A stretch of DNA of 64,000 nt from Candidatus Kaiserbacteria bacterium (GCA_027451665.1 DAIDIW010000002.1:48251-112250); one strand, 5' to 3'. Positions 29,534 through 52,481 are shown, numbered from the stretch's first letter. Notes: generated by a model from the letters alone, not told the origin. Numbers and translations: made by a program.

Positions 29534-30232
29534 TTACATCATGACCTCCGCCTCTTCGGATTCGATTTGGTCGACAATCCTCCGGGCGACGGCTTCAGCG
29601 GTATCCACCTGCATGCCGGGACGCCCTGCGGACGAGTCGTAGGTGGTGCCGAGCGCGTTCGCCCCAAAATCAGTCGCGGTCATCTTCGGGTGAAAGACGC
29701 AGACTGCGATGCCTTCATGCGAGAGCTCTGCGCGCGCCGTGAGCGAGAGCGCGTTCAGGGCGTATTTAGTCGACGCGTACGCGGCAAGTCCGGGGAAATA
29801 ATTCTTCGAAACGAGGGAACTGACGTTCAGTATGACTCCGCGCTCCCGTTCTCGCATCACAGGGATGGTTGCTTGCATTGCCTCGAGTACGGCGAAGACA
29901 TTAAGCTCGACGATAGCGCGGTACGCCTTGAGGTCGATGGATTCGACCGGTGCGAGGAGGCCCTGTCCGGCATTGTTCACGAGAATGTCGATCCGCCGGA
30001 AGATCTCGTGCGTGCGGCTGATAAGGCGGGTGACCTCTTCAGGCTTGCGTAGGTCAGTAACAATCGCGGTTGCGCCCGGCATCTCGGCGGCAAGCGCTTC
30101 GAGCCGTTCGGCAGATCGTGCGGCGAGCACTACCTGTGCTCCGCGTTTCGCAAGCTCCCTGGCTGTGGCGCGTCCGATTCCGCCTGAAGCTCCGGTCACG
30201 ATCGCGACTGCGTCACGTACTTCCATAGGCAA
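29534..30232 (-). CDS. short-chain dehydrogenase/reductase
   Basis: 'TGASGGIGRATA' Rossmann motif and 'YASTKYAL' catalytic YxxxK. Confidence 0.8.
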   Translation of the reverse strand: MPMEVRDAVAIVTGASGGIGRATARELAKRGAQVVLAARSAERLEALAAEMPGATAIVTDLRKPEEVTRLISRTHEIFRRIDILVNNAGQGLLAPVESIDLKAYRAIVELNVFAVLEAMQATIPVMRERERGVILNVSSLVSKNYFPGLAAYASTKYALNALSLTARAELSHEGIAVCVFHPKMTATDFGANALGTTYDSSAGRPGMQVDTAEAVARRIVDQIESEEAEVMM

Positions 30233-32678: not shown

Positions 32679-32750
32679 GACGCTATCGCACGTTCAATCG
32701 CGGCGCCTCCGGGCGCCGCGATCATTTTCGTTTTCCCCTTGTCCTTGTAT

Positions 32751-32768
32751 GGTGAACCATGGTTCACC
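32751..32768 (+). promoter_or_regulatory. LexA operator (Cheo-type SOS box) in the lexA promoter spacer, with the -10 TATAAT at 32769-74
   Basis: Perfect 18-bp palindrome GGTGAACCATGGTTCACC containing GAAC-N4-GTTC. It lies between TTGTAT (-35, 32745-50) and TATAAT. Confidence 0.7.
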
Positions 32769-32781
32769 TATAATGTATCGT

Positions 32782-33351
32782 ATGTCATACGAAGAACAAC
32801 GCGGGAGATTGCTTATGTTCTATGCGCGGCACAGGCGTATGCCGGGGTATCAGGAGCTCATGCGGCTCATGGGATTCCGCTCGAAGAACGCAGCCTACAA
32901 GCTTATCGGTCGATTCGTTGAGGACGGCGTTCTCGACAAGGACGCGAAAGGACACATTGCGCCGGGTAGGATCCTCCGTGGCGCGCGATTACTGGGAGTG
33001 GTCGAGGCTGGATTCCCGTCGCCGGCGGAAGAAGAACTCCTCGACATCATGGATTTCGATGAATATCTCGTTCCGAATAAAGAAGCCGCGTACATTCTTA
33101 AGGTGAAGGGGGATTCGATGATTGAGGCCGGCATTCAGCCGGGGGACATGGTCATCGTCGAGCGCCGGCAGACGTATAAGCCCGGGCAGATCGTCATCGC
33201 GAACGTGGACGGTGAGTACACCATGAAATACCTGCGCCGTGAGCGCGATCGTTATTATCTTGAGCCGGCAAATGCGAAATATAAGCCCCTCTACCCGGCG
33301 GAGCACCTCGACATCGAGGCGGTCGTGACCGGGGTCGTGCGCAAATACTGA
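32782..33351 (+). CDS. lexA: LexA repressor (S24 peptidase); start set at the ATG just after the -10 box (leaderless)
   Basis: N-terminal wHTH, then 'VKGDSMIEAGI' (catalytic Ser) and '...K...' of the S24 LexA/UmuD family. Confidence 0.85.
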   Translation: MSYEEQRGRLLMFYARHRRMPGYQELMRLMGFRSKNAAYKLIGRFVEDGVLDKDAKGHIAPGRILRGARLLGVVEAGFPSPAEEELLDIMDFDEYLVPNKEAAYILKVKGDSMIEAGIQPGDMVIVERRQTYKPGQIVIANVDGEYTMKYLRRERDRYYLEPANAKYKPLYPAEHLDIEAVVTGVVRKY

Positions 33352-41111: not shown

Positions 41112-41861
41112 TCATGATGGCGGATGGGCGGCGAGTGACGCTTCTTGCGCAGCCGTGAGATAGCGGTTGCGGCGTAGGGTAGAAAGCACGTGGAGATAGC
41201 GTGCGGCCGCAGCTGATGGGTGGGAACCGAAATAGCTCGGTGCTTGCGGCAGGCCCGTGAGGTAGTAGCACTGCGCACGCGAGAGCTGCGCAGGCGACTC
41301 ATTGAAGTAAGTACGCGCCGCTGCGGCAAACCCCAGCGCACCGCGGCCGTAGTAGACGCTGTTCAGATAAAGCTCAAGTATCCGTTGCTTGGAGAAATCG
41401 TGTTCGAGTATGAGCCCGTATTTAACTACCCTCAGCTCGCTCCATATCTCGGCAGGGAGCGAAGGCTGTGCGCGGGGTTCGTCGATTATAATGCGGGAGA
41501 GCTGTTGCGTGATCGTGCTACCACCGTGATCCTGGTGATCGTTCTTGAAGGTGGCGAATCCGGCGCGCACGAGCGCGATCGGATCGACCCCCGGATTATA
41601 GAAGAATCGTTTGTCTTCGACCGAGGTCGTTCCCTGCACGGCACAGTGGGGGATTGCGCTGAAGGGCAGATAGGTGCCGCCGCGCTCGGCATACGCGGCT
41701 TCGAGCTGCGCGGGGTATCGCGCGACGATGCCGCCGCTCGTAAGCGCAAAGATCGCGCCGAAAAAGTATGCCGCGAGGTAGAAGACGGCGACGCATCCTG
41801 CGGCGCCCGCAATCGCGTACACGGCAAAGCGCAGTGCCGTATATATCCTTTGCATCGGCAT
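41112..41861 (-). CDS. mtgA: monofunctional peptidoglycan glycosyltransferase (GT51)
   Basis: 'EDKRFFYNPGVDP' and 'GGSTITQQL' GT51 motifs. Confidence 0.8.
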   Translation of the reverse strand: MPMQRIYTALRFAVYAIAGAAGCVAVFYLAAYFFGAIFALTSGGIVARYPAQLEAAYAERGGTYLPFSAIPHCAVQGTTSVEDKRFFYNPGVDPIALVRAGFATFKNDHQDHGGSTITQQLSRIIIDEPRAQPSLPAEIWSELRVVKYGLILEHDFSKQRILELYLNSVYYGRGALGFAAAARTYFNESPAQLSRAQCYYLTGLPQAPSYFGSHPSAAAARYLHVLSTLRRNRYLTAAQEASLAAHPPS

Positions 41862-41914
41862 AAGATTCCTTACGATACCGAACCAGACGATGATAGGGAA
41901 GGCGCGTCCCGCTT

Positions 41915-43378
41915 TCAGCGTCGCGTTCTTCGCCAGATGAACGGGGCGAGGCCAATTTTCTCGGGGAGGCGGTTGAGGTACGGTATGTAGGGGAAGGTAA
42001 TCACCACAATCATAAGCAGGCCAAGTATCTCCGCGGCGTCTCTATCGCCGTACGCCTTGTCCGGCAGATCGAAGACGTAATTCGAGAGGGCTAGCGGCAT
42101 GAGCCACCACGATCCTGGAGGCAGCTTATAGACGCTCCCAGTTTCGTCTTTCACCATGCCCCATTCGACAGTGCTCATGTGGAGCGCCGCCGCGCGCTCT
42201 TCGGGAATTCCCATGTCGTCGAGAAAACGTAGGCTATAGGTGTAGTTGATGCTCGGGTTCTCGTTATCCAGGATCGATTCATAGAGGCCGCTCTTTGTCA
42301 TAGGAATGAGCGTTTGCAGCATCTCAATAACCGGGTTCGAGCTCGTCGCGTACCTGGTCTCGTCTGAGGACGATGCGAACCGATATGCCTGTGCGATATA
42401 CGCGCGCTGTGCGTCCGGGGAAGCGTGCGTAAATGCCTCCCACGCATCTGGCGTGACTACGGGCGGCGTCCCTGATGCGGTCAAAGCAGGCTGCCTGCTT
42501 TGGAGGTACGTCTCATAGGGAGACACCACATATACTCGCCGCGTATCGAAGGAGTATGGGTCAATAGAGTCAAGATAGGTTGCGGTATCGGAGGTATGAT
42601 CGAATTCCTGGAGGAGGGTGGTCGTCACGAGTGGCTGGCGCACGCGGGCAATGTCTGCGATACGTACCGACGGTACGTACGGCGAATGGAAAAAGAAGGC
42701 AAGCGTAAGTATGACGAGCAAGAGCGCAAGTCCGCGCTCATACATGATGCGGTGATTCGCCGCTTCCATCGTATAAGAAATGTCCGACCGGTATGGTTTT
42801 GCGATGCCGTACGTATGTTCAAGCAAATAGTGCGCAATGAAGAGTACGAAGATCGTGAGAGGGATAAGCGCGACGTGTATCAGGAACGTCTGCGAATAGT
42901 TTAAGGGGTTCAGCCAATAGCCGAGGTATGCACCGTTCCAGAAATCAGCTCCGGAGACGGCCCGGAATTGCGACGCGAAATCTCCGCGTAACCCATAGCC
43001 GAATTCCGTCTGAATGAGCGCTAGACAGAAGATGGTTGCCCCGAACACCCAGACCATGCGCCGCGGCTTCCGAAAGCCGCTCGTCGTGAAGCCTACGAGC
43101 CCATGCAGGATAAGGATGAAAATAAAGGCCTGGACTGTCCACAGATGCACGCTGCGTACGTAAATGCCCCAAGGGTTAAAAAGCCACCAATTTTGACCCA
43201 TAAAGGCCAACGTGAGACCTGAAATACCGAGAAGGACGAGACAGGTGAGCGCGAGAAAACCGAGACCGTAGAATATGGTGTTGCCGTAGGAGGGAAGTCG
43301 GTGAAAATAGACTTTATCGAGGATTGTATGCAGCGCATTGGTATCGGGACTATACTCGTGAACCTCGTCGGGTGTCAT
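41915..43378 (-). CDS. di-heme cytochrome b N-terminal domain fused to a non-canonical, mostly hydrophilic ~280-aa C-terminal region
   Basis: Paired His in 'VRSVHLWTVQAFIFILILH' and 'FLIHVALIPLTIFVLFIAHYLL' (cyt b/b6 helices B and D). No Rieske or cytochrome c gene is adjacent. Confidence 0.55.
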   Translation of the reverse strand: MTPDEVHEYSPDTNALHTILDKVYFHRLPSYGNTIFYGLGFLALTCLVLLGISGLTLAFMGQNWWLFNPWGIYVRSVHLWTVQAFIFILILHGLVGFTTSGFRKPRRMVWVFGATIFCLALIQTEFGYGLRGDFASQFRAVSGADFWNGAYLGYWLNPLNYSQTFLIHVALIPLTIFVLFIAHYLLEHTYGIAKPYRSDISYTMEAANHRIMYERGLALLLVILTLAFFFHSPYVPSVRIADIARVRQPLVTTTLLQEFDHTSDTATYLDSIDPYSFDTRRVYVVSPYETYLQSRQPALTASGTPPVVTPDAWEAFTHASPDAQRAYIAQAYRFASSSDETRYATSSNPVIEMLQTLIPMTKSGLYESILDNENPSINYTYSLRFLDDMGIPEERAAALHMSTVEWGMVKDETGSVYKLPPGSWWLMPLALSNYVFDLPDKAYGDRDAAEILGLLMIVVITFPYIPYLNRLPEKIGLAPFIWRRTRR

Positions 43379-44801: not shown

Positions 44802-45620
44802 ATGCCAGACATCGCACCCCTCAGTCTTGCCAGCAACGCACTCGACACCTTCGCCAAGTGGGCGCGGGTCATGGAGAGGGCGGGCGTCACGTACGACCAG
44901 CTCGTGCTGCCAATCAACAGCCGGACGGCGCGCCGGAACCTCGCCGAATACCTGAAGGCGGGCTGCCCGAAGCTGGGAAACGCAACCGCAACAGCCGATC
45001 CCGCACCGCTCACCGGCTACGACCTCGCCTCGATCATCCTCGGGAAGGATTTCATTCGTCCCGACGAGGTCGCGGCGAACCGCCCCGGCGTCGTATACAG
45101 CGACGAGCAGTTCGAATCGTTCGAGAACATGCTGCCCGGCCGCGAGGAACTCGAAGAGCTTCGCGACGATGGCTATATGCTCGTCCCTGGTCCCGCGCAA
45201 CCGATGGCGCTCCTCGACATCCGCAGCCTCAAACCCGGCTACTTCTACACGAAAACGGGCGGCTGGTATGCGGAGGAGAAGCAGCGCTTCTCGCGCGAAG
45301 ATCGCGCCCCGACGAAGTGGCTCAAGCTCCGCAAGGGGCCGGTGCCGAACTCGACGGGCAAGAACTGGGACGAACAAAGCCCGCTCCTCTCGGCCGTCGA
45401 GCACGTCCCGAACGACGCCGAAGTCGAATGGGCCGTGACGACGTACAAGGCCGTCCGGGGCATCTACCTGCTCCCGAACGTCTACGTGCGCACGTCCAGT
45501 CGCACCGCTGGCGGCAGTCGCGTCGACGTGGGCCGCTTCGACGCCGAGGGTCTCGACGTCAACGACGTCTGGGGCGACGGCCGCTTCTCTTACTTGGGCC
45601 TGGCGTCTGCTCGGGAGTGA
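44802..45620 (+). CDS. hypothetical protein (start 44802 'MPDIAPL', or the ATG at 44745 inside the hairpin)
   Basis: No motif recognised. Hairpins followed by T-tracts at about 45640-45720 look like terminators. Confidence 0.35.
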   Translation: MPDIAPLSLASNALDTFAKWARVMERAGVTYDQLVLPINSRTARRNLAEYLKAGCPKLGNATATADPAPLTGYDLASIILGKDFIRPDEVAANRPGVVYSDEQFESFENMLPGREELEELRDDGYMLVPGPAQPMALLDIRSLKPGYFYTKTGGWYAEEKQRFSREDRAPTKWLKLRKGPVPNSTGKNWDEQSPLLSAVEHVPNDAEVEWAVTTYKAVRGIYLLPNVYVRTSSRTAGGSRVDVGRFDAEGLDVNDVWGDGRFSYLGLASARE

Positions 45621-45969
45621 ATCTCGAAGCCTTGAGGGCTTGTCCCTCTTGATCTCTTGACTCCTTGAGCCCTCTCGTTTTTTGCGGATACAACTGCAAA
45701 AGCGCGAGGGCTTTTTCTTTGGTCACTTTTTGGGCAACCCGTGGGCAACCGCGGGCATTACCAACCAACGCAACGCGGACAAAAAGTGGCCAGAGAAAAC
45801 GTTACACCCTCCCAACTTGGGAAGGGTGTTTCGCTTTGACTGCTTCAGAGGCAGAACAGTCCGGGAGCCTTTTGAGGACTGCGTAACGTTCACGATGCGC
45901 ACTTGTTCATCACCTCCTGTATGCGATCTGATTGGTGGGAATCCTGACCATTTGGGATATAATCAACAC

Positions 45970-46317
45970 GTGTCCGATATAAAGAAACTAACTAAGGACT
46001 TGGTCAAATTTCGAGATGCGCGGGATTGGAAACAATTCCACAACCCCAAGGACTGCGCCATCTCTCTGTCGCTCGAGGCCGCAGAGGTACTCGAGCATTT
46101 TCAATGGAAGGATACGAAAGAAGTAGAGCAATACCTAAAGACAAACAAGGCTGATATTGGCGAGGAACTCGCAGACGTTTTGTACTGGGTACTGCTCATC
46201 TCTCACGACCTAAAAATTGACCTCGCGCGGGCATTCGAGAAAAAGATGGAAAAGAACAGTGCCAAGTATCCCGTTGCGAAGGCGAAAGGGAAGCATACCA
46301 AATACACTGAACTATGA
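45970..46317 (+). CDS. MazG-like all-alpha nucleotide pyrophosphohydrolase (YpjD-like); GTG start 6 nt after a TATAAT box
   Basis: 'LSLEAAEVLEHFQWK...IGEELADVLYWVLLISH' with the paired EExxE/D metal-binding helices of the MazG family. TATAAT at 45958-63. The stop overlaps the next start (ATGA). Confidence 0.55.
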   Translation: MSDIKKLTKDLVKFRDARDWKQFHNPKDCAISLSLEAAEVLEHFQWKDTKEVEQYLKTNKADIGEELADVLYWVLLISHDLKIDLARAFEKKMEKNSAKYPVAKAKGKHTKYTEL

Positions 46318-47162
46318 GATTGTTCTCGGGCTCGTCAACAGAGTTTATTAGCGACGCGATACATAACCAGATTGCTGACAAACTCAAAAACGCATTCTTC
46401 CAGTACTACCGATACAATCCCTCGCCCGGCGAGATCCGCTCTTGGCAGAACTCCTTACGAGCCCTGTCGCAGGTTTTTACATACTCGAATCTCGACGACA
46501 ACGGGGTGATTCTTGAATACCAGCTCCCGCTAACCTCGAAGCGGCTTGATTGCCTCATTACGGGTCACGACGAGGAGAGATCAAATGCAGTCATAATCGA
46601 ACTCAAACAATGGGAGAAGTGTGAAATGTCCGAAAGCGAAAATGAGGTCCTCACTTGGGTCGGTGGAGCAAAGCGCGAGGTGTTACACCCCTCCGTTCAA
46701 GTCGGTCGCTATCAAATGTACCTAAAGGATACGCATACAGCTTTTAATATCGATAACCCGGTACAGCTCGAAGCGTGCTCTTATCTACACAACTACACTC
46801 CGCACCCCCACGACGAGATATATTCAACGAAATTCCAGAATTTGCTCGAAACCTTCCCGGTCTTTACGGCTGACGACGTAGATCCCTTCCGGGAGTACCT
46901 AACTTCCAAACTCTCTCGAGGCGGCGGGATGGAGATTTTGGATCGTATCGAAAAAAGCGAGTACAAGCCGAGCAAACAACTCATGGATCACGTGAGCAAG
47001 ATTATCCGCGAACGAAGCGAGTACATTCTGCTCGATGAGCAACTCATTGTGTATGACAAGGTACTCTCCATTGTAAAAAAAGGACTGGATAGCCAGAAGA
47101 AGACGGTCGTTATTGTCCGTGGAGGTCCAGGGACAGGGAAATCCGTGATAGCTATAAACTGA
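46314..47162 (+). pseudogene. N-terminal 282 codons of a PD-(D/E)xK-like plus P-loop NTPase (DUF2075/Schlafen-like ATPase architecture), cut off immediately after Walker A by an IS3 insertion
   Basis: Putative nuclease motif 'RLDCLITGHDEE...IIELKQW' and Walker A 'VIVRGGPGTGKSVIA'. The stop TGA at 47160-62 is the first triplet of the IS left inverted repeat. Confidence 0.55.
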
Positions 47163-47227
47163 CCCGTACCCCAAATTTTGCACACCCTCTTGGGAGGATT
47201 AACCTGTGCGCATAACCCTCCCGCCAT

Positions 47228-47482
47228 ATGAAGCAGCGACGCATCGCTCCAGAACTCAAGGAGCAGATACTTGGGCGCATTAAGAACGACGGCGTCTCCG
47301 TCTCGCAGGCGGCCGCCGATCACGGCGTGAACCCCACCACCATATATGAGTGGCTCAAGGCAGGCATCGAAAGCGGTCCCTCATACGCAGAACGCTCCCG
47401 CCTGAAGAGGGAGAACCTCGACTTGAAGCTCCTCGTGGGCGAGATGACGCTCCGCCTCTCCGAGGCCCAAAAAAAGAGGTGA
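47228..47482 (+). CDS. IS3-family transposase OrfA (HTH)
   Basis: 'SVSQAAADHGVNPTTIYEWLK' HTH and a leucine-zipper-like C-terminus. A slippery A AAA AAG heptamer at 47470-47476 is followed by the stop. Confidence 0.8.
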   Translation: MKQRRIAPELKEQILGRIKNDGVSVSQAAADHGVNPTTIYEWLKAGIESGPSYAERSRLKRENLDLKLLVGEMTLRLSEAQKKR

Positions 47483-48294
47483 GGAGCGCATACCGTGCGA
47501 ACACCGCGCTCCTCGCGCGGCAGCTCGGCGTGTCTCGCCGGAGCCTGTACCACCGCCCCCGCATGGAAGCGAAGGATTGGGCGCTCAAGGTGCGGATCGA
47601 AGAAGCGCTCAGAGAATTCCCCGCATACGGGCACCGCCGCTTGGCGCTTCACCTTCGCGCCAACAAGAAGCGGGTGCGCCGCGTGATGAAGAAGTTCGGC
47701 ATCAAGCCGTATCGAAGGAGGGTACGGCACTGGAAGAAACCGAGGAAACTGCTCGGTATCTATCCGAACCTCCTCATGACCATGCGGCCGTCCTTCCCGC
47801 ACCACGCCTGGGCGGCAGACTTCACGCATATCCTCTGGCGGGAACACGACATCCGCATGGCGACCGTGGTGGACATCTTCACGCGCAGGATCGTGGGCCT
47901 CGCGATTGGGACCCGCGGCGGCACCGCCCTCGTGACCGCCGCGCTCTGCAACGCGCTCCTGGCACATCCCCGCCCTGTCCTCTTCCACAGCGACAATGGG
48001 GTTGAGTATGACGCATGTTCCTTCCGGAGACTTCTCGATTCGCTTGACATCCGCATCTCACGGAGCAAGAAGGGCTGTCCCTGGGAGAACGGGTACCAGG
48101 AGAGCTTCTATGACAAGTTCAAGATCGACCTCGGGGATCCGAACCGCTTCGAGACGCTCGGCGAACTCACCGCAGAACTCTATGCGGCCGTGCATGCATA
48201 CAACACCCGCCGCATACATTCCACGCTTCGCATGCCGCCACAAGAATTCGCAGCAAGGCACGCACGTGCTACGCTATTAGCAATCCCAAGTTAG
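47350..48294 (+). CDS. IS3-family transposase OrfB (DDE integrase core), expressed as OrfAB by -1 frameshifting at 47470-47476
   Basis: After the frameshift the reading continues 'KKEVRSAYRANTALLARQ'. DDE motifs 'HSDNGVEY' and 'CPWENGYQES' are present. Confidence 0.8.
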   Translation: MAQGRHRKRSLIRRTLPPEEGEPRLEAPRGRDDAPPLRGPKKEVRSAYRANTALLARQLGVSRRSLYHRPRMEAKDWALKVRIEEALREFPAYGHRRLALHLRANKKRVRRVMKKFGIKPYRRRVRHWKKPRKLLGIYPNLLMTMRPSFPHHAWAADFTHILWREHDIRMATVVDIFTRRIVGLAIGTRGGTALVTAALCNALLAHPRPVLFHSDNGVEYDACSFRRLLDSLDIRISRSKKGCPWENGYQESFYDKFKIDLGDPNRFETLGELTAELYAAVHAYNTRRIHSTLRMPPQEFAARHARATLLAIPS

Positions 48295-48347
48295 TGTGCA
48301 AGAAAAGGGGTGCATTCCAATTACCGCTGGAATGTCCTTTGTTTCCC

Positions 48348-49106
48348 TTACGCATTACTCGCGATAGGACTCGAACCGCGTATATTCTCCAGAAATTGCT
48401 CCCAAGATTCCTGCGAGTTAATGCCAAGGATTTCTTGGTATGCTCGCTCGTTCTCTTGCGGAGTAGATTTTCTTTGAAGAGTTTTATAGAGCAGAAGATA
48501 CTTTTCTTTCCCGAAATTATTGAGGAGGTATTCGGAAAAAAGAGCTGCGAGTGCGTAGTATTGGCGAGCGAGGTCGTCATTGGTTGCAATCCAAGCATCG
48601 TGGCTCGTTAGTAAATCAGGAGAGATGACGAAACGTTCATTTGTGAACGCTTCTTTTACAACATCTGCAAAGTCATTGCCGTACCAGTCGTGTCCGACCA
48701 TACGCTCCGCAAGTCCTTCTTGAAGGAAACCGATTGAAAGGCCAAGGGGAAGCGAGAGAAGGTGGGTATCTTCGTGAGGTCCTATCACTCGGTCTTTTTC
48801 GGTATAGAGCGCATGCACGGCAAAATCATTGTAAATAGATTGAGCGAACCATGGAGTGCCCATTAATTTCTCCTTTGTCTCGGCGTCAGGATAAAGATAG
48901 TAGGAGATTTTCTTATCAACAGATGGAAGTTCAAGAAATGCGACTATCTGCCGGTACGCGCGTTCCTGAACCTCAACGATTTTCTCGATTTCCTTCTCGG
49001 CCAAGGAATTTTTAAAGTAATGAAAGCGATAGTGCGCAGAATCTCGTGCCTCCCACGGGGCATCTTTAAATGCAGTGGTATAGCCGGGTAACTGCTGTTC
49101 GTACAT
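48348..49106 (-). CDS. hypothetical protein with an HExxH motif (possible zincin-like metallopeptidase)
   Basis: 'GPHEDTHLLS' HExxH, AT-rich codon usage. It lies directly downstream of the radical-SAM gene. Confidence 0.35.
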   Translation of the reverse strand: MYEQQLPGYTTAFKDAPWEARDSAHYRFHYFKNSLAEKEIEKIVEVQERAYRQIVAFLELPSVDKKISYYLYPDAETKEKLMGTPWFAQSIYNDFAVHALYTEKDRVIGPHEDTHLLSLPLGLSIGFLQEGLAERMVGHDWYGNDFADVVKEAFTNERFVISPDLLTSHDAWIATNDDLARQYYALAALFSEYLLNNFGKEKYLLLYKTLQRKSTPQENERAYQEILGINSQESWEQFLENIRGSSPIASNA

Positions 49107-49117
49107 GGACCCACTTT

Positions 49118-49160
49118 ACTACAAGAAGAAAACGGCCGCATGTCTGTGACATACGGCCGC
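49118..49160 (-). terminator. rho-independent terminator after the radical-SAM gene
   Basis: Stem CGGCCGCATGTC/GACATACGGCCG with one mismatch, followed on the minus strand by 'uuuucuucuu'. Confidence 0.5.
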
Positions 49161-49175
49161 CAAGTGTGAAAGACC

Positions 49176-50480
49176 TCATGAATGCACGATCCGGAGGAGA
49201 CCCCGATTCATACGGTCAAGAAGCGCTTTTTGACAGAATCGTCGCGCACCGCCTTGCTCGGGTCCGTGTTCGACCATCGCCTCGAACGTGCACCCACCAC
49301 CGCAGACCGGTAGATATGTGCAGCGTTCTTTGATGCAGTCATCGGTTCGTTTCCACTGTTCAAACCGCGGATCCTTCGTATACGTCGTCGGTTTTGCGGC
49401 GACGTTCGCGAAGTTGAACTCAGGTCGACCGCTGGTGCAGAAGCATTTTTGCAGGTTGCCATCCGGCTGTAGAACTGCTGCGTGTTTTGCCACGGCTACA
49501 CAGAGCGGACCGGCGATGAACTCATCCGGAACTTCGAACCCCTTAGCTTTCGCATACTCCCACGTGGAGAGCGCTGCGTCTGCCAGTTGTTCTTGCGTCA
49601 TGCGACCGGGCGTTACCGAAAGCGATGGCGTGGTGAGTCCGAGCGAAAGGCGTATGCGAGAATGCCTCCCGAGCGCATCAAGCTCGTCGATGAGACGGGC
49701 CAAGTGGTTCTTAGTTCCGGTGTCGAGTGTCAGCCGGATGTCGACGGCCGGAATGTAGTCAGTCGACAGCAGCATCCGAACGTTCTTCATGATGTTTGCG
49801 AATGTCGGACGGTTCTTCCGCCCGAAACGCCGCGTGTCATGAATCTCCGCCGGTCCATCCAGCGTAATCTGTACTCGTCGCCAGTTATAGCGGGAGAACA
49901 TCTCGGCTGTTTTTTCGTCGAGTAGTTCACCGTTCGTCGTAATTTCGACCCAGAAGTCGAGACCAAGTTCTCGACAGAGCGATTGGTAGGCTTCAAGAGC
50001 TTGGGCGATAACCCCCTTGCAGAGAAGCGGTTCGCCACCGAAGAACTTGAGACGCAGCGAATCGACCTCTGGATGGAGCCGAACGTATTCTCGGAACCAC
50101 GTGAGCGAGTGTTCCAGGATTTCCGGCCTCATTGGACGGCCCCTGTCAGCGCCATTCTCGAAGCAATACGGACACTCGAACTGGCACTGAATGGTTGGTT
50201 CGAAATGAAGCGTAAACACATGCGCTTCATCGTTCCGGGTCGTGAGCATGAGTTTGTGCCACTCGGCGATTTCGTCGATATCGCCTTCGACGAGGAAGCC
50301 GTTCTCGATGAGGTCGTCAAGACCTTTCGGGACCGGATTCTCGTCTTGTCGGGCGAGCCATTGGTCGAGTTCAAGCTTGGCCTCGTGACTCATCAAGATG
50401 GCCGCTTCGGTGAAGGTGTTCTTGGCGAGCACTCCTCGAGGTAGATTTTCAAAGATCGTGAACGCACTGAGTAACCACAT
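49176..50480 (-). CDS. radical SAM/SPASM-domain peptide-modifying enzyme with a ~95-aa N-terminal RRE-like extension
   Basis: 'CQFECPYC' CxxxCxxC, 'FFGGEPLL', and a C-terminal SPASM cysteine array 'C...CFC...CIKERCTYLPVCGGGC'. AGGAGA Shine-Dalgarno 7 nt upstream. Confidence 0.8.
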   Translation of the reverse strand: MWLLSAFTIFENLPRGVLAKNTFTEAAILMSHEAKLELDQWLARQDENPVPKGLDDLIENGFLVEGDIDEIAEWHKLMLTTRNDEAHVFTLHFEPTIQCQFECPYCFENGADRGRPMRPEILEHSLTWFREYVRLHPEVDSLRLKFFGGEPLLCKGVIAQALEAYQSLCRELGLDFWVEITTNGELLDEKTAEMFSRYNWRRVQITLDGPAEIHDTRRFGRKNRPTFANIMKNVRMLLSTDYIPAVDIRLTLDTGTKNHLARLIDELDALGRHSRIRLSLGLTTPSLSVTPGRMTQEQLADAALSTWEYAKAKGFEVPDEFIAGPLCVAVAKHAAVLQPDGNLQKCFCTSGRPEFNFANVAAKPTTYTKDPRFEQWKRTDDCIKERCTYLPVCGGGCTFEAMVEHGPEQGGARRFCQKALLDRMNRGLLRIVHS

Positions 50481-50564
50481 GGAACATTCTCCTTTTCGGT
50501 TTGCATGAATAGTGCCCGGAGCTAAAAAGCCCCGGGCACTAAGGTGAAGGAGGTAGGCCTGGCT

Positions 50565-50705
50565 TCAGTAGCCGCAGCCGTCCTTGCCGAACTTGGTGGC
50601 GCCGACGATGCGACGCTTCCCGGGTTTCAGCACCTGCACCGCAGGCTTGGCTTCCGGCTCGATCGCCTTCGTGGCAGTCGAAACGGAGGAGGGGATTGCA
50701 TTCAT
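50565..50705 (-). CDS. 46-aa candidate RiPP precursor peptide (not in the ORF track)
   Basis: Own translation: MNAIPSSVSTATKAIEPEAKPAVQVLKPGKRRIVGATKFGKDGCGY. GAGAGG Shine-Dalgarno 7 nt upstream. It is on the same strand as, and 84 nt upstream of, the radical-SAM gene, with a GC hairpin between them. Confidence 0.4.
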   Translation of the reverse strand: MNAIPSSVSTATKAIEPEAKPAVQVLKPGKRRIVGATKFGKDGCGY

Positions 50706-50779
50706 GGCAAAACCTCTCTATTGAGGAGGACCATTCCTCCACGATACAGAGTGCCACAAAAACGTATGCTTTTCAATAG

Positions 50780-50909
50780 AAAAAGTTCGAGTCCTATCCG
50801 CGAGCGGATGGGACTCGAATTTTTTGACTCATTTCTAAGTCACGATATGTTGCATTTCCTCACTATTTTCTGGACGGGAATGGGTCGGATGCACAGGAAT
50901 CATCTGCTC
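50780..50909. repeat. copy A of a ~130-bp imperfect direct repeat; contains a bidirectional terminator-like hairpin (50780-50826)
   Basis: About 80% identical to 52282-52412. Hairpin GTTCGAGTCCTATCCGC/GCGGATGGGACTCGAA flanked by AAAAA and TTTTTT. Confidence 0.6.
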
Positions 50910-50985
50910 TGGGGATGCGATCCTAACTCTCAAAATATCCTTGCTTTATCTCGCACTCGATGGCGATGGGATTCGAACCTGGATC

Positions 50986-51017
50986 ATAAAAAAGAGCCAC
51001 TGGATTCCCAGCGGCTC
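50986..51017 (-). terminator. rho-independent terminator of purM
   Basis: 10-bp stem GAGCCGCUGG/CCAGUGGCUC (one G-U), loop gaau, then UUUUUU on the minus strand. Confidence 0.6.
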
Positions 51018-51035
51018 TCAAGTCTGTCGACGGTG

Positions 51036-52151
51036 CTATTCGCCCGGAGGCTCGAGCACCATGTCGTTTATCGGTCCAAAGACAGTTTTGCGTTCGCCAT
51101 CTTCGACGCAGCCGACTTCAAGCGCTTCGTAGCCGGCCGTTTTCGCGATGGCCAGAACCCGATCGGCTTCGTTCACTGGAACGAAGACGTAGTAGCCAAC
51201 GCCCCAGTTGAAGGTGGTAATGCAATCCTTGTCCGAGACCCCGAGCTCCCACATGAAGCGGAAGAGCGGCGGCACCTCCGGCCAGGAGTGGATGCGGTAG
51301 GTGTGCGGGCGATGGTCGAAGGCGACCTTCGCGACGCCGCTCCCCGTTCCTGGCAGGAGCGCGTGGATGTCCACCCCGTGATTGAGGAGCGTCTCAACGA
51401 GTCCGACATAACACCGCGTCGGAATAAGCGCCTCATCGCCGAGCGTATTGCCACCCGGCAGTTTAGCGAGGAACTTATCCGGAAGATCCATCGCCCGCTT
51501 GATAACGAGCGATACACCATTGGCGTGCAAGCCGGAGCTCGTAATGCCGATGATGCGATCGCCGGTCGCGAGCTTGCTGCCGTCAATCAGGTTGCTAAGC
51601 GGCGCGATGATGCCTGTGACGCAGCCGCTCAACGATGGCGCACTCTTGACCGGTTCCTGCGCACGAACCAGATATTTGAGCGCAGGAGATTCGCCGGCGA
51701 CGAGTGCCATGCCAGACATCTTGCAGGCCTCGTAAAAGCCCTGCGCGAGGTCTTGAGCACGCTTCACATCTTGGAACCATTCACTGTCTCCGGCGGCGAC
51801 CTCGTCCACATACGCCACGGGCATTGCGCCCTGGGCGATGCAATCGTTCACCGCCATCATTGCGTTGTCGATGCCGATGCCGCGATAGTGCGGGTCGCCG
51901 GTACCGTCGTTCTGCTACATCCACTCGGCGATCCAATTCTTGTTCCCGAGGCCTTCCATGGTATTGCACCAGGCGTGTTTGTAGTTGCCCTCGTAGCGGA
52001 AGATGCCGCCGTGTGAGTGCAGCACGCTGGTGTTGATGAATACCTGTCGTGCTTCGGGGAAGCCGACAGTACGTTTGGCGGTCGCAATCATTGCGTCCTT
52101 GAAGGGCTCGATCTTGGTGTAATCGACTCCAGCCTTCGCATATTCGCTCAT
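51036..52151 (-). pseudogene. purM: phosphoribosylformylglycinamidine cyclo-ligase (AIR synthase) interrupted by an in-frame TAG at 51915-51917
   Basis: The N-terminal ORF 'MSEYAKAGVDYTKI...' and the C-terminal ORF '...GITSSGLHANGVSLV...' are in the same frame, and the 18 codons between them also align to PurM. A single amber codon separates them. Confidence 0.65.
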
Positions 52152-52281
52152 TTTTACTCTCGCTTTCGTTGAGTTTTGGTGGTTTGTGCTGGTCTGTCGG
52201 TCATCCTACAGACGTCTCTCGGGAAGGCAAGCAACGACACAATATCGGGCGGGGGAATTTTGTAATCCGGACTCGGGATAT

Positions 52282-52412
52282 AAAAAGTTCGAGTCCCATC
52301 CAAGGGCGGATAGGACTCGAACTTTCTTGACTCTTCACGAATCTAGAATGTGTTGCGATTGCTCGCTTTTTTCCGGACGGGAATGGGTCGGTTGCACAGA
52401 AATCATCTGCTC
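52282..52412. repeat. copy B of the ~130-bp direct repeat; this copy is the 3' trailer of tRNA-Asn and carries a minus-strand terminator hairpin (52284-52329)
   Basis: Alignment with 50780-50909; the hairpin position has compensatory differences. Confidence 0.6.
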
Positions 52413-52481
52413 CGCGGGTAGGATTCGAACCTACGACCAATCGGTTAACAGCCGACCGCTCTACCACTGAGCTACCGCGGA
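52410..52481 (-). tRNA. tRNA-Asn (anticodon GTT)
   Basis: Folded by hand: acceptor TCCGCGG/CCGCGGA, D-arm GCTC-AGTGGTA-GAGC, anticodon loop CTGTTAA, T-arm GTAGG-TTCGAAT-CCTAC, discriminator G. No encoded CCA. Confidence 0.85.

Follow-up and report, generated by a model that had tools for sequence, protein, structure and literature searches.

A 64-kb stretch of a Candidatus Kaiserbacteria bacterium contig (GCA_027451665.1 DAIDIW010000002.1:48251-112250; 64,000 nucleotides, hereafter the window, with positions counted from its first letter) carries a gene for a MazG-like nucleoside triphosphate (NTP) pyrophosphohydrolase, followed by the first 282 codons of a nuclease-helicase gene that breaks off at the first base of an IS3-family insertion sequence (IS). 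Taking all steps together, we consider it likely that a low-G+C cassette made up of the MazG-like gene and a nuclease-helicase gene similar to Nhi was acquired by the host, was truncated by the IS3 element at the Walker A motif and lost its remaining part, and that the intact form of this cassette acts against phages. The features on which this reading depends are listed below.

45970..46317, + strand: MazG-like all-alpha NTP pyrophosphohydrolase (DCTPP1/RS21-C6-like; PF12643), 115 amino acids (aa), GTG start
46314..47159, + strand: nuclease-helicase gene remnant, codons 1-282, with a PD-(D/E)xK-like domain (catalytic-signature codons E68 at 46515, D79 at 46548, E96 at 46599 and K98 at 46605) and a Walker A motif (47121-47144)
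47160..48319, + strand: IS3-family insertion sequence, 1160 bp, TG...CA ends, G+C 0.607
47160-47195 and 48284-48319: imperfect inverted repeats of the IS, ~36 bp
47228..47482, + strand: OrfA of the IS, 84 aa, HTH_Tnp_1 (PF01527)
47476..48294, + strand: OrfB frame of the IS, DDE/rve core, read after a -1 frameshift

Truncation of a nuclease-helicase gene at an IS3-family element

Homology to the full-length proteins stops at position 47159, the last native codon being AAC (47157-47159), after which the homologues go on with ...INLMA.... As had been proposed in an earlier note on this DNA, the nuclease open reading frame (ORF) ends in a TGA stop codon (47160-47162) with which the left inverted repeat (IR) of the IS opens. 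This repeat begins TGACCCGTACCCC... (at greater length, TGACCCGTACCCCAAATTTTGCACAC) and pairs with the reverse complement of the right end, ...GGGGTGCATTCCA, which finishes at 48319. An alternative genetic code with TGA as a sense codon was rejected, since, of the 60 stop-to-stop frames of ≥250 codons in the window, 34 are closed by TGA. When five intact homologues were used as tblastn queries, their residues 1-283/284 aligned to 46314-47159 and no helicase remainder was found within the 64-kb window, in agreement with the earlier claim that nothing of the gene follows the IS; the only other match above noise was the S24 domain of an unrelated LexA-like gene at ~33 kb. No other stop or frameshift interrupts the 282 codons.

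The element scores 198 bits with the IS3 transposase model NF033516 (cut-off 160) and is structurally a member of the IS3 family. It resembles this family in the helix-turn-helix (HTH) of OrfA, in the A-AAA-AAG -1 frameshift heptamer (47470-47476) leading into a DDE/rve OrfB, and in imperfect IRs with TG...CA ends, and it apparently is intact. It differs from the family in its short length, in the low identity of its transposase to plasmid-borne IS3 transposases (≤35%), and in the absence of a target-site duplication (3-4 bp), the flanks reading AAC (47157-47159) on the left and ATT (48320-48322) on the right.

Related sequences were compared for the same arrangement without an IS. Two metagenome contigs from the ENA carry the right flank without the element and have other content beyond it: the longer one (L055, 3.3 kb) is 94.7% identical to the window from 50330 down to 48323, and the shorter one (L056, 1.2 kb) is 97.7% identical from 49508 down to 48323. 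Colinearity of both ends 3 bp from the IS end, which fixes the right end of the element to within 3 bp, in an intergenic region downstream of a peptidase gene. Beyond this junction, L055 carries a DNA_alkylation (PF08713) gene and a 65-aa ORF, both without an equivalent in the window; the short tail of L056 leaves the window sequence in the same way and continues as in L055. Because the relatives continue differently there, the IS sits at the junction of two segments that are not adjacent in relatives. The lack of a target duplication together with non-neighbouring flanks is explained by an IS-mediated adjacent deletion. Judged from these sequences, insertion plus deletion, as put forward in the earlier note, is the likeliest route; an inversion between IS copies or a mis-join of a metagenome-assembled genome (MAG) at the IS would look identical inside the window.

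A side observation concerns the right terminus of the IS (48307-48319; reverse complement TGGAATGCACCCC), which resembles the native sequence of the relatives at this place (L055 2014-2028, TAGAATCGCATCCCC). This likeness may mean that the element inserted beside a target resembling its IR, a behaviour known from some IS3 members, or may be a coincidence.

The N-terminal domain of the truncated protein carries the E...D...ExK signature on an alpha-beta-beta-beta-alpha-beta core that defines PD-(D/E)xK membership. The residues E68, D79, E96 and K98, as well as the Walker A residues G270-S277, are invariant among homologues, and the AlphaFold model of this domain has a predicted local distance difference test (pLDDT) score of 83.8; a Foldseek comparison of the model with the PDB gave nothing significant. 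The PF09848 helicase profile matches the window ORF at profile positions 1-20 of 354 only, with 18.1 bits against a cut-off of 24, the gathering score not being reached because the gene is truncated. Full-length homologues do carry PF09848, and the PD-(D/E)xK-like N-terminus with a P-loop in a DUF2075/Schlafen-like architecture, as had been suggested for this gene, is supported.

To what extent the family may be naturally short was judged from its homologues. A search with the 282-aa ORF against 5.8 billion proteins returned 1087 homologues; all those listed were ≤493 aa, which looks like a length filter at ~1.75x the query, and fragments are over-represented among them because of this apparent filter. 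All complete homologues in genome contigs (46 of 46) are 556-817 aa long, and each has an N-terminal domain of ~260 aa followed by a full SLFN-g3/DUF2075 helicase domain (PF09848, 284-301 bits, positions 1-354), so that the family is not naturally short. The ~280-aa database matches are frameshifted or contig-end fragments, in which unrelated tails begin at scattered points near the P-loop; the closest of them (P0002, 75% identical) belongs to a frameshifted locus with helicase and S24 fragments downstream. A recurrent truncation hotspot at the P-loop was rejected on the same grounds, the short matches reflecting the length limit and the frameshift and contig-end positions being scattered. The helicase part alone has >7,000 close homologues.

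The class closest to the window copy (767-817 aa) additionally ends in a C-terminal Peptidase_S24 domain (LexA/UmuD-like). In the closest relatives this domain matches LexA/UmuD structures; the GDSM serine and the lysine are retained, as is a UmuD-like Cys-Gly, features which suggest a RecA*-type self-cleavage of a defence-like helicase. In four loci (L002, L005, L008 and L009; residues ~640-767), the Cys-Gly was observed to sit where LexA has its Ala-Gly cleavage site, with the Ser/Lys dyad kept. The window itself encodes a 200-aa LexA-like S24 protein (32749-33351, + strand), and the host therefore probably has an SOS-type circuit into which an S24-gated module could plug. A weak likeness to the PD-(D/E)xK core of the nuclease-helicase N-domain was also seen at 29804-29962 (+ strand; E 0.001, 36% over 53 aa), and the ORFs overlapping this stretch have no Pfam match.

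The 115-aa protein encoded upstream of the nuclease matches the PF12643 profile with 60.9 bits (cut-off 27), which upholds its earlier assignment as a MazG-like pyrophosphohydrolase. It aligns at full length with the closest solved structures, an archaeal pyrophosphatase (4qgp, E 3.7e-21) and dCTP pyrophosphatase 1/RS21-C6 (DCTPP1; 6sqw, E 3.8e-17), and all metal ligands of the ExxE...ExxD motif are present (E36, E39, E42, E66 and D69), each being conserved in at least 90% of 42 sequences. In contrast to DCTPP1 and 4qgp, the window MazG gene is operonic: as read earlier, its stop and the start of the nuclease gene overlap as ATGA (46314-46317), and the two genes are translationally coupled. 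The GTG at 45970 is where the homologues start, and a public collection contains exactly this 115-aa product; a 211-aa ORF (45682-46317) considered as the MazG gene is therefore over-extended. A TATAAT is found at 45958-45963, 6 nt 5' of the GTG, and an obvious Shine-Dalgarno sequence was not seen there; the MazG transcript may lack a leader or have only a very short one.

Composition of the region and neighbouring features

The base composition was compared with 1-kb windows outside the region (mean G+C 0.595, standard deviation 0.022, minimum 0.527).

45621..45969: left transition zone, intergenic; G+C drops from ~0.64 to 0.51
45970-47160: MazG gene and nuclease stub; G+C 0.481, z -5.1
47161-48319: IS as measured; G+C 0.607, z +0.5
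48320-49106: HExxH peptidase gene segment; G+C 0.457, z -6.1
49176..50480: radical-SAM gene; G+C 0.556, z -1.7
50761-51035: copy-A region; G+C 0.465, z -5.8

Two blocks lie far under the G+C of the window, at 45.65-47.16 kb (0.48) and at 48.32-49.1 kb (0.46), and the tetranucleotide distance to the rest of the window is similarly raised (z = 8 at 45.6-47.1 kb and z = 7 at 48.0-49.2 kb). The strong deviation in G+C and tetranucleotide composition supports the earlier statement that the sequence becomes AT-richer from ~45.8 kb; the edge given at 45780 is only approximate, since the left edge of the deviant block lies somewhere in 45.62-45.97 kb. The right boundary at copy A of a direct repeat (50776-50927) is likewise sustained, the deviant composition ceasing at ~51.0 kb. 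Two further claims fell: the IS is not intermediate in composition, its G+C being host-like, and the region is not one single island. The 'island' is composed of two or more foreign blocks that meet at the IS and does not form a single unit.

Compared with a tRNA-associated genomic island, the region has the deviant composition (G+C z -5 to -6; tetranucleotide z up to 8), and no integrase is encoded between 43 and 52.5 kb. The region is not bounded by tRNA-derived repeats, the sole such pair (at tRNA-Asn) bracketing a purM-like gene instead. The features to the right of the IS are given below.

48348..49106, - strand: HExxH protein, 252 aa, HEDTH motif; lowest G+C in the region (0.457)
49176..50480, - strand: radical SAM/SPASM peptide maturase, 434 aa, PF04055
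50565..50705, - strand: candidate precursor peptide, 46 aa (...KFGKDGCGY), upstream of the maturase; exact product in the collection
50776-50927, + strand: direct-repeat copy A, 78% identical to copy B (52278-52430); terminator-like hairpin
51036-52151, - strand: purM-like (AIR-synthase-related) gene with an in-frame TAG at 51915-51917
52410-52481, - strand: tRNA-Asn

The peptidase, the maturase and the candidate precursor form an adjacent module for a ribosomally synthesized and post-translationally modified peptide (RiPP). The 252-aa HExxH protein has no Pfam match of its own; its family comprises 436 representatives, and seven of the eight members scanned give sub-threshold Peptidase_MA_2 matches. 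It represents a divergent metallopeptidase of the MA clan (gluzincin-like) and probably serves as leader peptidase in the RiPP module. The best NCBIfam model for the maturase is TIGR04463, at 174 bits under a cut-off of 525. The maturase/peptidase segment (48323-50330) has 95-98% nucleotide identity to the ENA contigs, versus 82% for the closest core relative found, a 1.9-kb contig (L073, with a similar ERZ272... assembly accession) compared over window positions 41560-43359 in the cytochrome b region, and no other window protein that was looked up has a cluster mate from a true relative at ≥90% identity; together these observations are a hint of recent horizontal transfer of the RiPP segment. 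Two 52-aa genes (P0126 and P0127) that cluster with the cytochrome b were rejected as relatives, being unrelated genes in other organisms.

Copy B of the direct repeat (153 nt) overlaps the last 21 nt of the tRNA-Asn and its downstream terminator hairpin, and copy A holds a degenerate tRNA-Asn 3' end (~14/21 nt). With no integrase near it, the repeat pair looks like an old att-site or a duplication scar, bracketing the purM-like gene only. This gene is recorded in the collection as two products, of 78 aa and 274 aa, and is probably a pseudogene, or else contains a sequencing error. A tRNA-Thr(tgt) predicted by ARAGORN at 45408-45484 (- strand) is a false positive, with a mismatched acceptor stem, no Rfam match and a position inside a 272-aa coding ORF.

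The intact cassette and its relation to known defence systems

In 41 of 55 other loci, which span bacteria, archaea and two viral contigs, a MazG-like gene lies directly upstream of the nuclease-helicase gene, usually with overlapping stop and start codons, and MazG is the only widely conserved neighbour. The hosts, with proteins at 45-69% identity, include Omnitrophota, Patescibacteria, Bacteroidota (Pedobacter, Sphingobacterium), Bacillota, Methanosarcinales and Woesearchaeota; on viral contigs the cassette is rare (7 loci in 2.9 million). Similar to the window, the G+C of the cassette is below that of its flanks in L001, L002 and L008. The variable neighbours comprise HNH endonucleases directly downstream, a second DUF2075 paralogue, SNF2/ResIII-NOV_C, NACHT and large UvrD/DEAD helicases. 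An HNH-endonuclease gene (232-242 aa) was observed in a conserved position directly downstream of the long form in L002, L005, L018, L020 and L028, and may be a third component of the cassette; a 238-aa ORF at the same position in L009 does not cluster with these genes, and a second DUF2075 paralogue of 658 aa takes the place of the HNH gene in L007, L013 and L026.

We compared the cassette with known defence systems. Against PADLOC, the nuclease-helicase proteins gave weak partial matches only, to PDC-S41 (31-63 bits) and to Nhi and AbiO (21-50 bits over the P-loop region), while the MazG protein had zero matches. The matches to the Nhi and AbiO models cover the Walker A to motif II region only and nowhere the full length, in the window fragment and the intact homologues alike. 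The PDC-S41 match is the best one and is colinear at both ends of the 657-position model (window residues 5-104; residues 533-608 of intact homologues), but it covers <30% of the model, and PDC-S41 is itself a single-gene uncharacterised candidate without a MazG partner.

The closest architectural counterpart is Nhi of Staphylococcus epidermidis (SERP2475), in which immunity needs both nuclease and helicase and a helicase mutant loses immunity (bioRxiv 10.1101/776245), together with 'Nhi-like', a single-protein nuclease-helicase immunity that is experimentally anti-phage (Millman et al. 2022; 10.1101/2022.05.11.491447). Mutation of a phage DNA methylase allows escape from Nhi-like defence (10.1101/2022.08.27.505566), which suggests that Nhi-like is directed against modified DNA. 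As in these systems, the cassette family has an N-terminal PD-(D/E)xK nuclease followed by a superfamily 1 (SF1) helicase overlapping DUF2075/PF09848. Sequence similarity to Nhi is remote (21-44 bits with the PADLOC Nhi model, P-loop region only), and two features of the family have no described equivalent in Nhi: the conserved MazG partner and the S24 domain that is often present at the C-terminus. A further difference of the copy in the window is its lack of a helicase: the homologues contain both domains, and this copy stops after Walker A. Eukaryotic Schlafen group III proteins (SLFN11/13) differ in that their N-terminal nuclease is of another type than the PD-(D/E)xK-like fold found here, and in that the cassette is a prokaryotic operon.

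The pairing of MazG with the nuclease-helicase is not in PADLOC v2, and literature searches did not find DUF2075 or Nhi together with MazG in the searchable papers and gave one irrelevant paper for Schlafen with MazG. MazG-like effectors have been predicted in other NTP-targeting conflict systems (10.64898/2026.01.15.699771). The cassette is not a named defence system and could plausibly be a variant, apparently unnamed, of Nhi-type nuclease-helicase defence.

Proposed history, alternative explanations and meaning

In the model that we favor, the host, a Paceibacteria-like member of the Patescibacteria judging by the names of cytochrome b homologues, acquired a low-G+C two-gene cassette, encoding a DCTPP1-like MazG and a PD-(D/E)xK nuclease-SF1 DUF2075/Schlafen-group-3 helicase, the latter originally a protein of ~770 aa with a C-terminal LexA/UmuD-type self-cleaving S24 domain, judged by the closest relatives. 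A resident IS3 element of host-like G+C now abuts codon 282 right after Walker A and supplies the stop, and the stretch between codon 282 and the intergenic region 3' of the RiPP peptidase gene would have been lost, most likely by IS-mediated adjacent deletion. The lost part would include no less than 1.0-1.5 kb coding for helicase and S24, and probably also the DNA-alkylation-repair gene seen in relatives. In its intact form, the nuclease-helicase would degrade invading, possibly base-modified, DNA, and MazG would hydrolyse deoxycytidine triphosphate (dCTP) or 5-modified dCTP, so that the phage is starved or modified nucleotides do not enter host DNA; the S24 domain, where present, would gate the activity by autoproteolysis. 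By analogy with Nhi, whose immunity needs both nuclease and helicase, the window copy would be non-functional and the module dead, with only MazG and a helicase-less nuclease stub remaining, and the intact cassette would act in anti-phage defence.

The absence of a target duplication (AAC versus ATT) and two flanks that are unrelated in relatives would also follow from an inversion between two IS copies or from an assembler mis-join of the left and right flanks of two different copies, in which case the 3' part of the gene would survive elsewhere beside a second IS copy; the source is apparently a MAG contig, and mis-joins typically occur at repeats. An adjacent deletion caused by an IS3-family element likewise produces no duplication, the OrfA product of the IS was found on one contig only in the protein collection, and no second IS copy was found within the 64-kb window. 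Moreover, when the C-terminal 484 aa of the closest intact homologue served as query, the best 120 matches listed included no orphan C-terminal fragment from the window's contig, and such a rearrangement or artefact is, in our judgement, unlikely. One candidate for the orphan fragment (P0296) was rejected, as the genome that it comes from is unrelated and has a pseudogenised N-terminus of its own. That the 282-aa product is instead a functional stand-alone nuclease, naturally short or neo-functionalised and kept together with MazG, could be read from an ORF without further stops or frameshifts, from the retention of all invariant nuclease residues and from several database homologues of ~280-297 aa. 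These short homologues end in divergent frameshift tails at different points near the P-loop or lie at contig ends (P0002 having helicase and S24 fragments downstream), and short lengths are not over-represented (21 of 120 listed matches versus ~20 expected from a flat length distribution). Given in addition that the stop is IS-borne, that the ORF ends inside the first strand-loop motif of the helicase and that the Nhi helicase mutant loses immunity, we regard a stand-alone nuclease as very improbable.

A different role for the intact cassette would be that of an SOS-linked DNA-repair or nucleotide-pool-sanitising module, in which MazG cleans non-canonical deoxynucleoside triphosphates, the nuclease-helicase processes damaged DNA and the S24 domain provides the tie to RecA, the window then holding a decayed repair accessory gene. 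The conservation of the LexA/UmuD-like S24 domain, the DNA-alkylation-repair gene adjoining the right flank in a relative and the fact that DCTPP1-type MazG enzymes are house-cleaning enzymes are in line with such a role. The patchy spread across domains of life at 60-69% identity, a G+C below that of the hosts and variable neighbourhoods rich in HNH, NACHT, SNF2-nuclease and second DUF2075 genes are, in contrast, hallmarks of mobile defence genes and not of conserved repair pathways. As experiments have demonstrated anti-phage activity for this architecture in Nhi and Nhi-like, a repair module appears to us an improbable alternative.

Several points nevertheless weigh against the acquisition, truncation and defence history that we favor. 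A close relative (>75% identity) with an intact cassette was not found. The view is limited to 64 kb, and the missing 3' part could lie elsewhere in the genome. The nearest core relatives (L063 and L064, with 71% and 67% cytochrome b identity) share that gene alone with the window, without synteny, and no relatives at ≥90% identity of the flanking window proteins were found in the protein collection. The low partial PADLOC scores (21-63 bits) leave membership in Nhi, AbiO or PDC-S41 not established. Finally, the description of the region as a decayed defence or accessory locus in the earlier note stands as far as an IS-truncated module is concerned, its defence part being drawn from architecture and gene neighbourhood only.

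Extending the preferred reading, we tentatively raise the possibility that the intact cassette is an undescribed two-gene anti-phage system, combining a (modified-)dCTP pyrophosphatase with a modification-sensitive Nhi-like nuclease-helicase whose long form is released by RecA*-type autoproteolysis at Cys-Gly, and that such a cassette may be common in Patescibacteria, Omnitrophota, Bacteroidota and methanogenic or DPANN archaea, the window then holding a copy killed by the IS.

Taken alone, the window locus represents a routine IS inactivation of an accessory gene with removal of adjacent DNA, and matters little. Of wider interest is the consistent coupling of a DCTPP1-related pyrophosphatase to an Nhi-like nuclease-helicase across bacteria and archaea, often with a LexA-like domain fused to the latter. 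If this cassette is indeed a defence system, it would join nucleotide-pool manipulation and nucleic-acid degradation in one operon and would offer a testable route to how Nhi-like proteins handle modified phage DNA, one that is directly accessible in the intact copies present in cultivable hosts, such as Pedobacter and Sphingobacterium.

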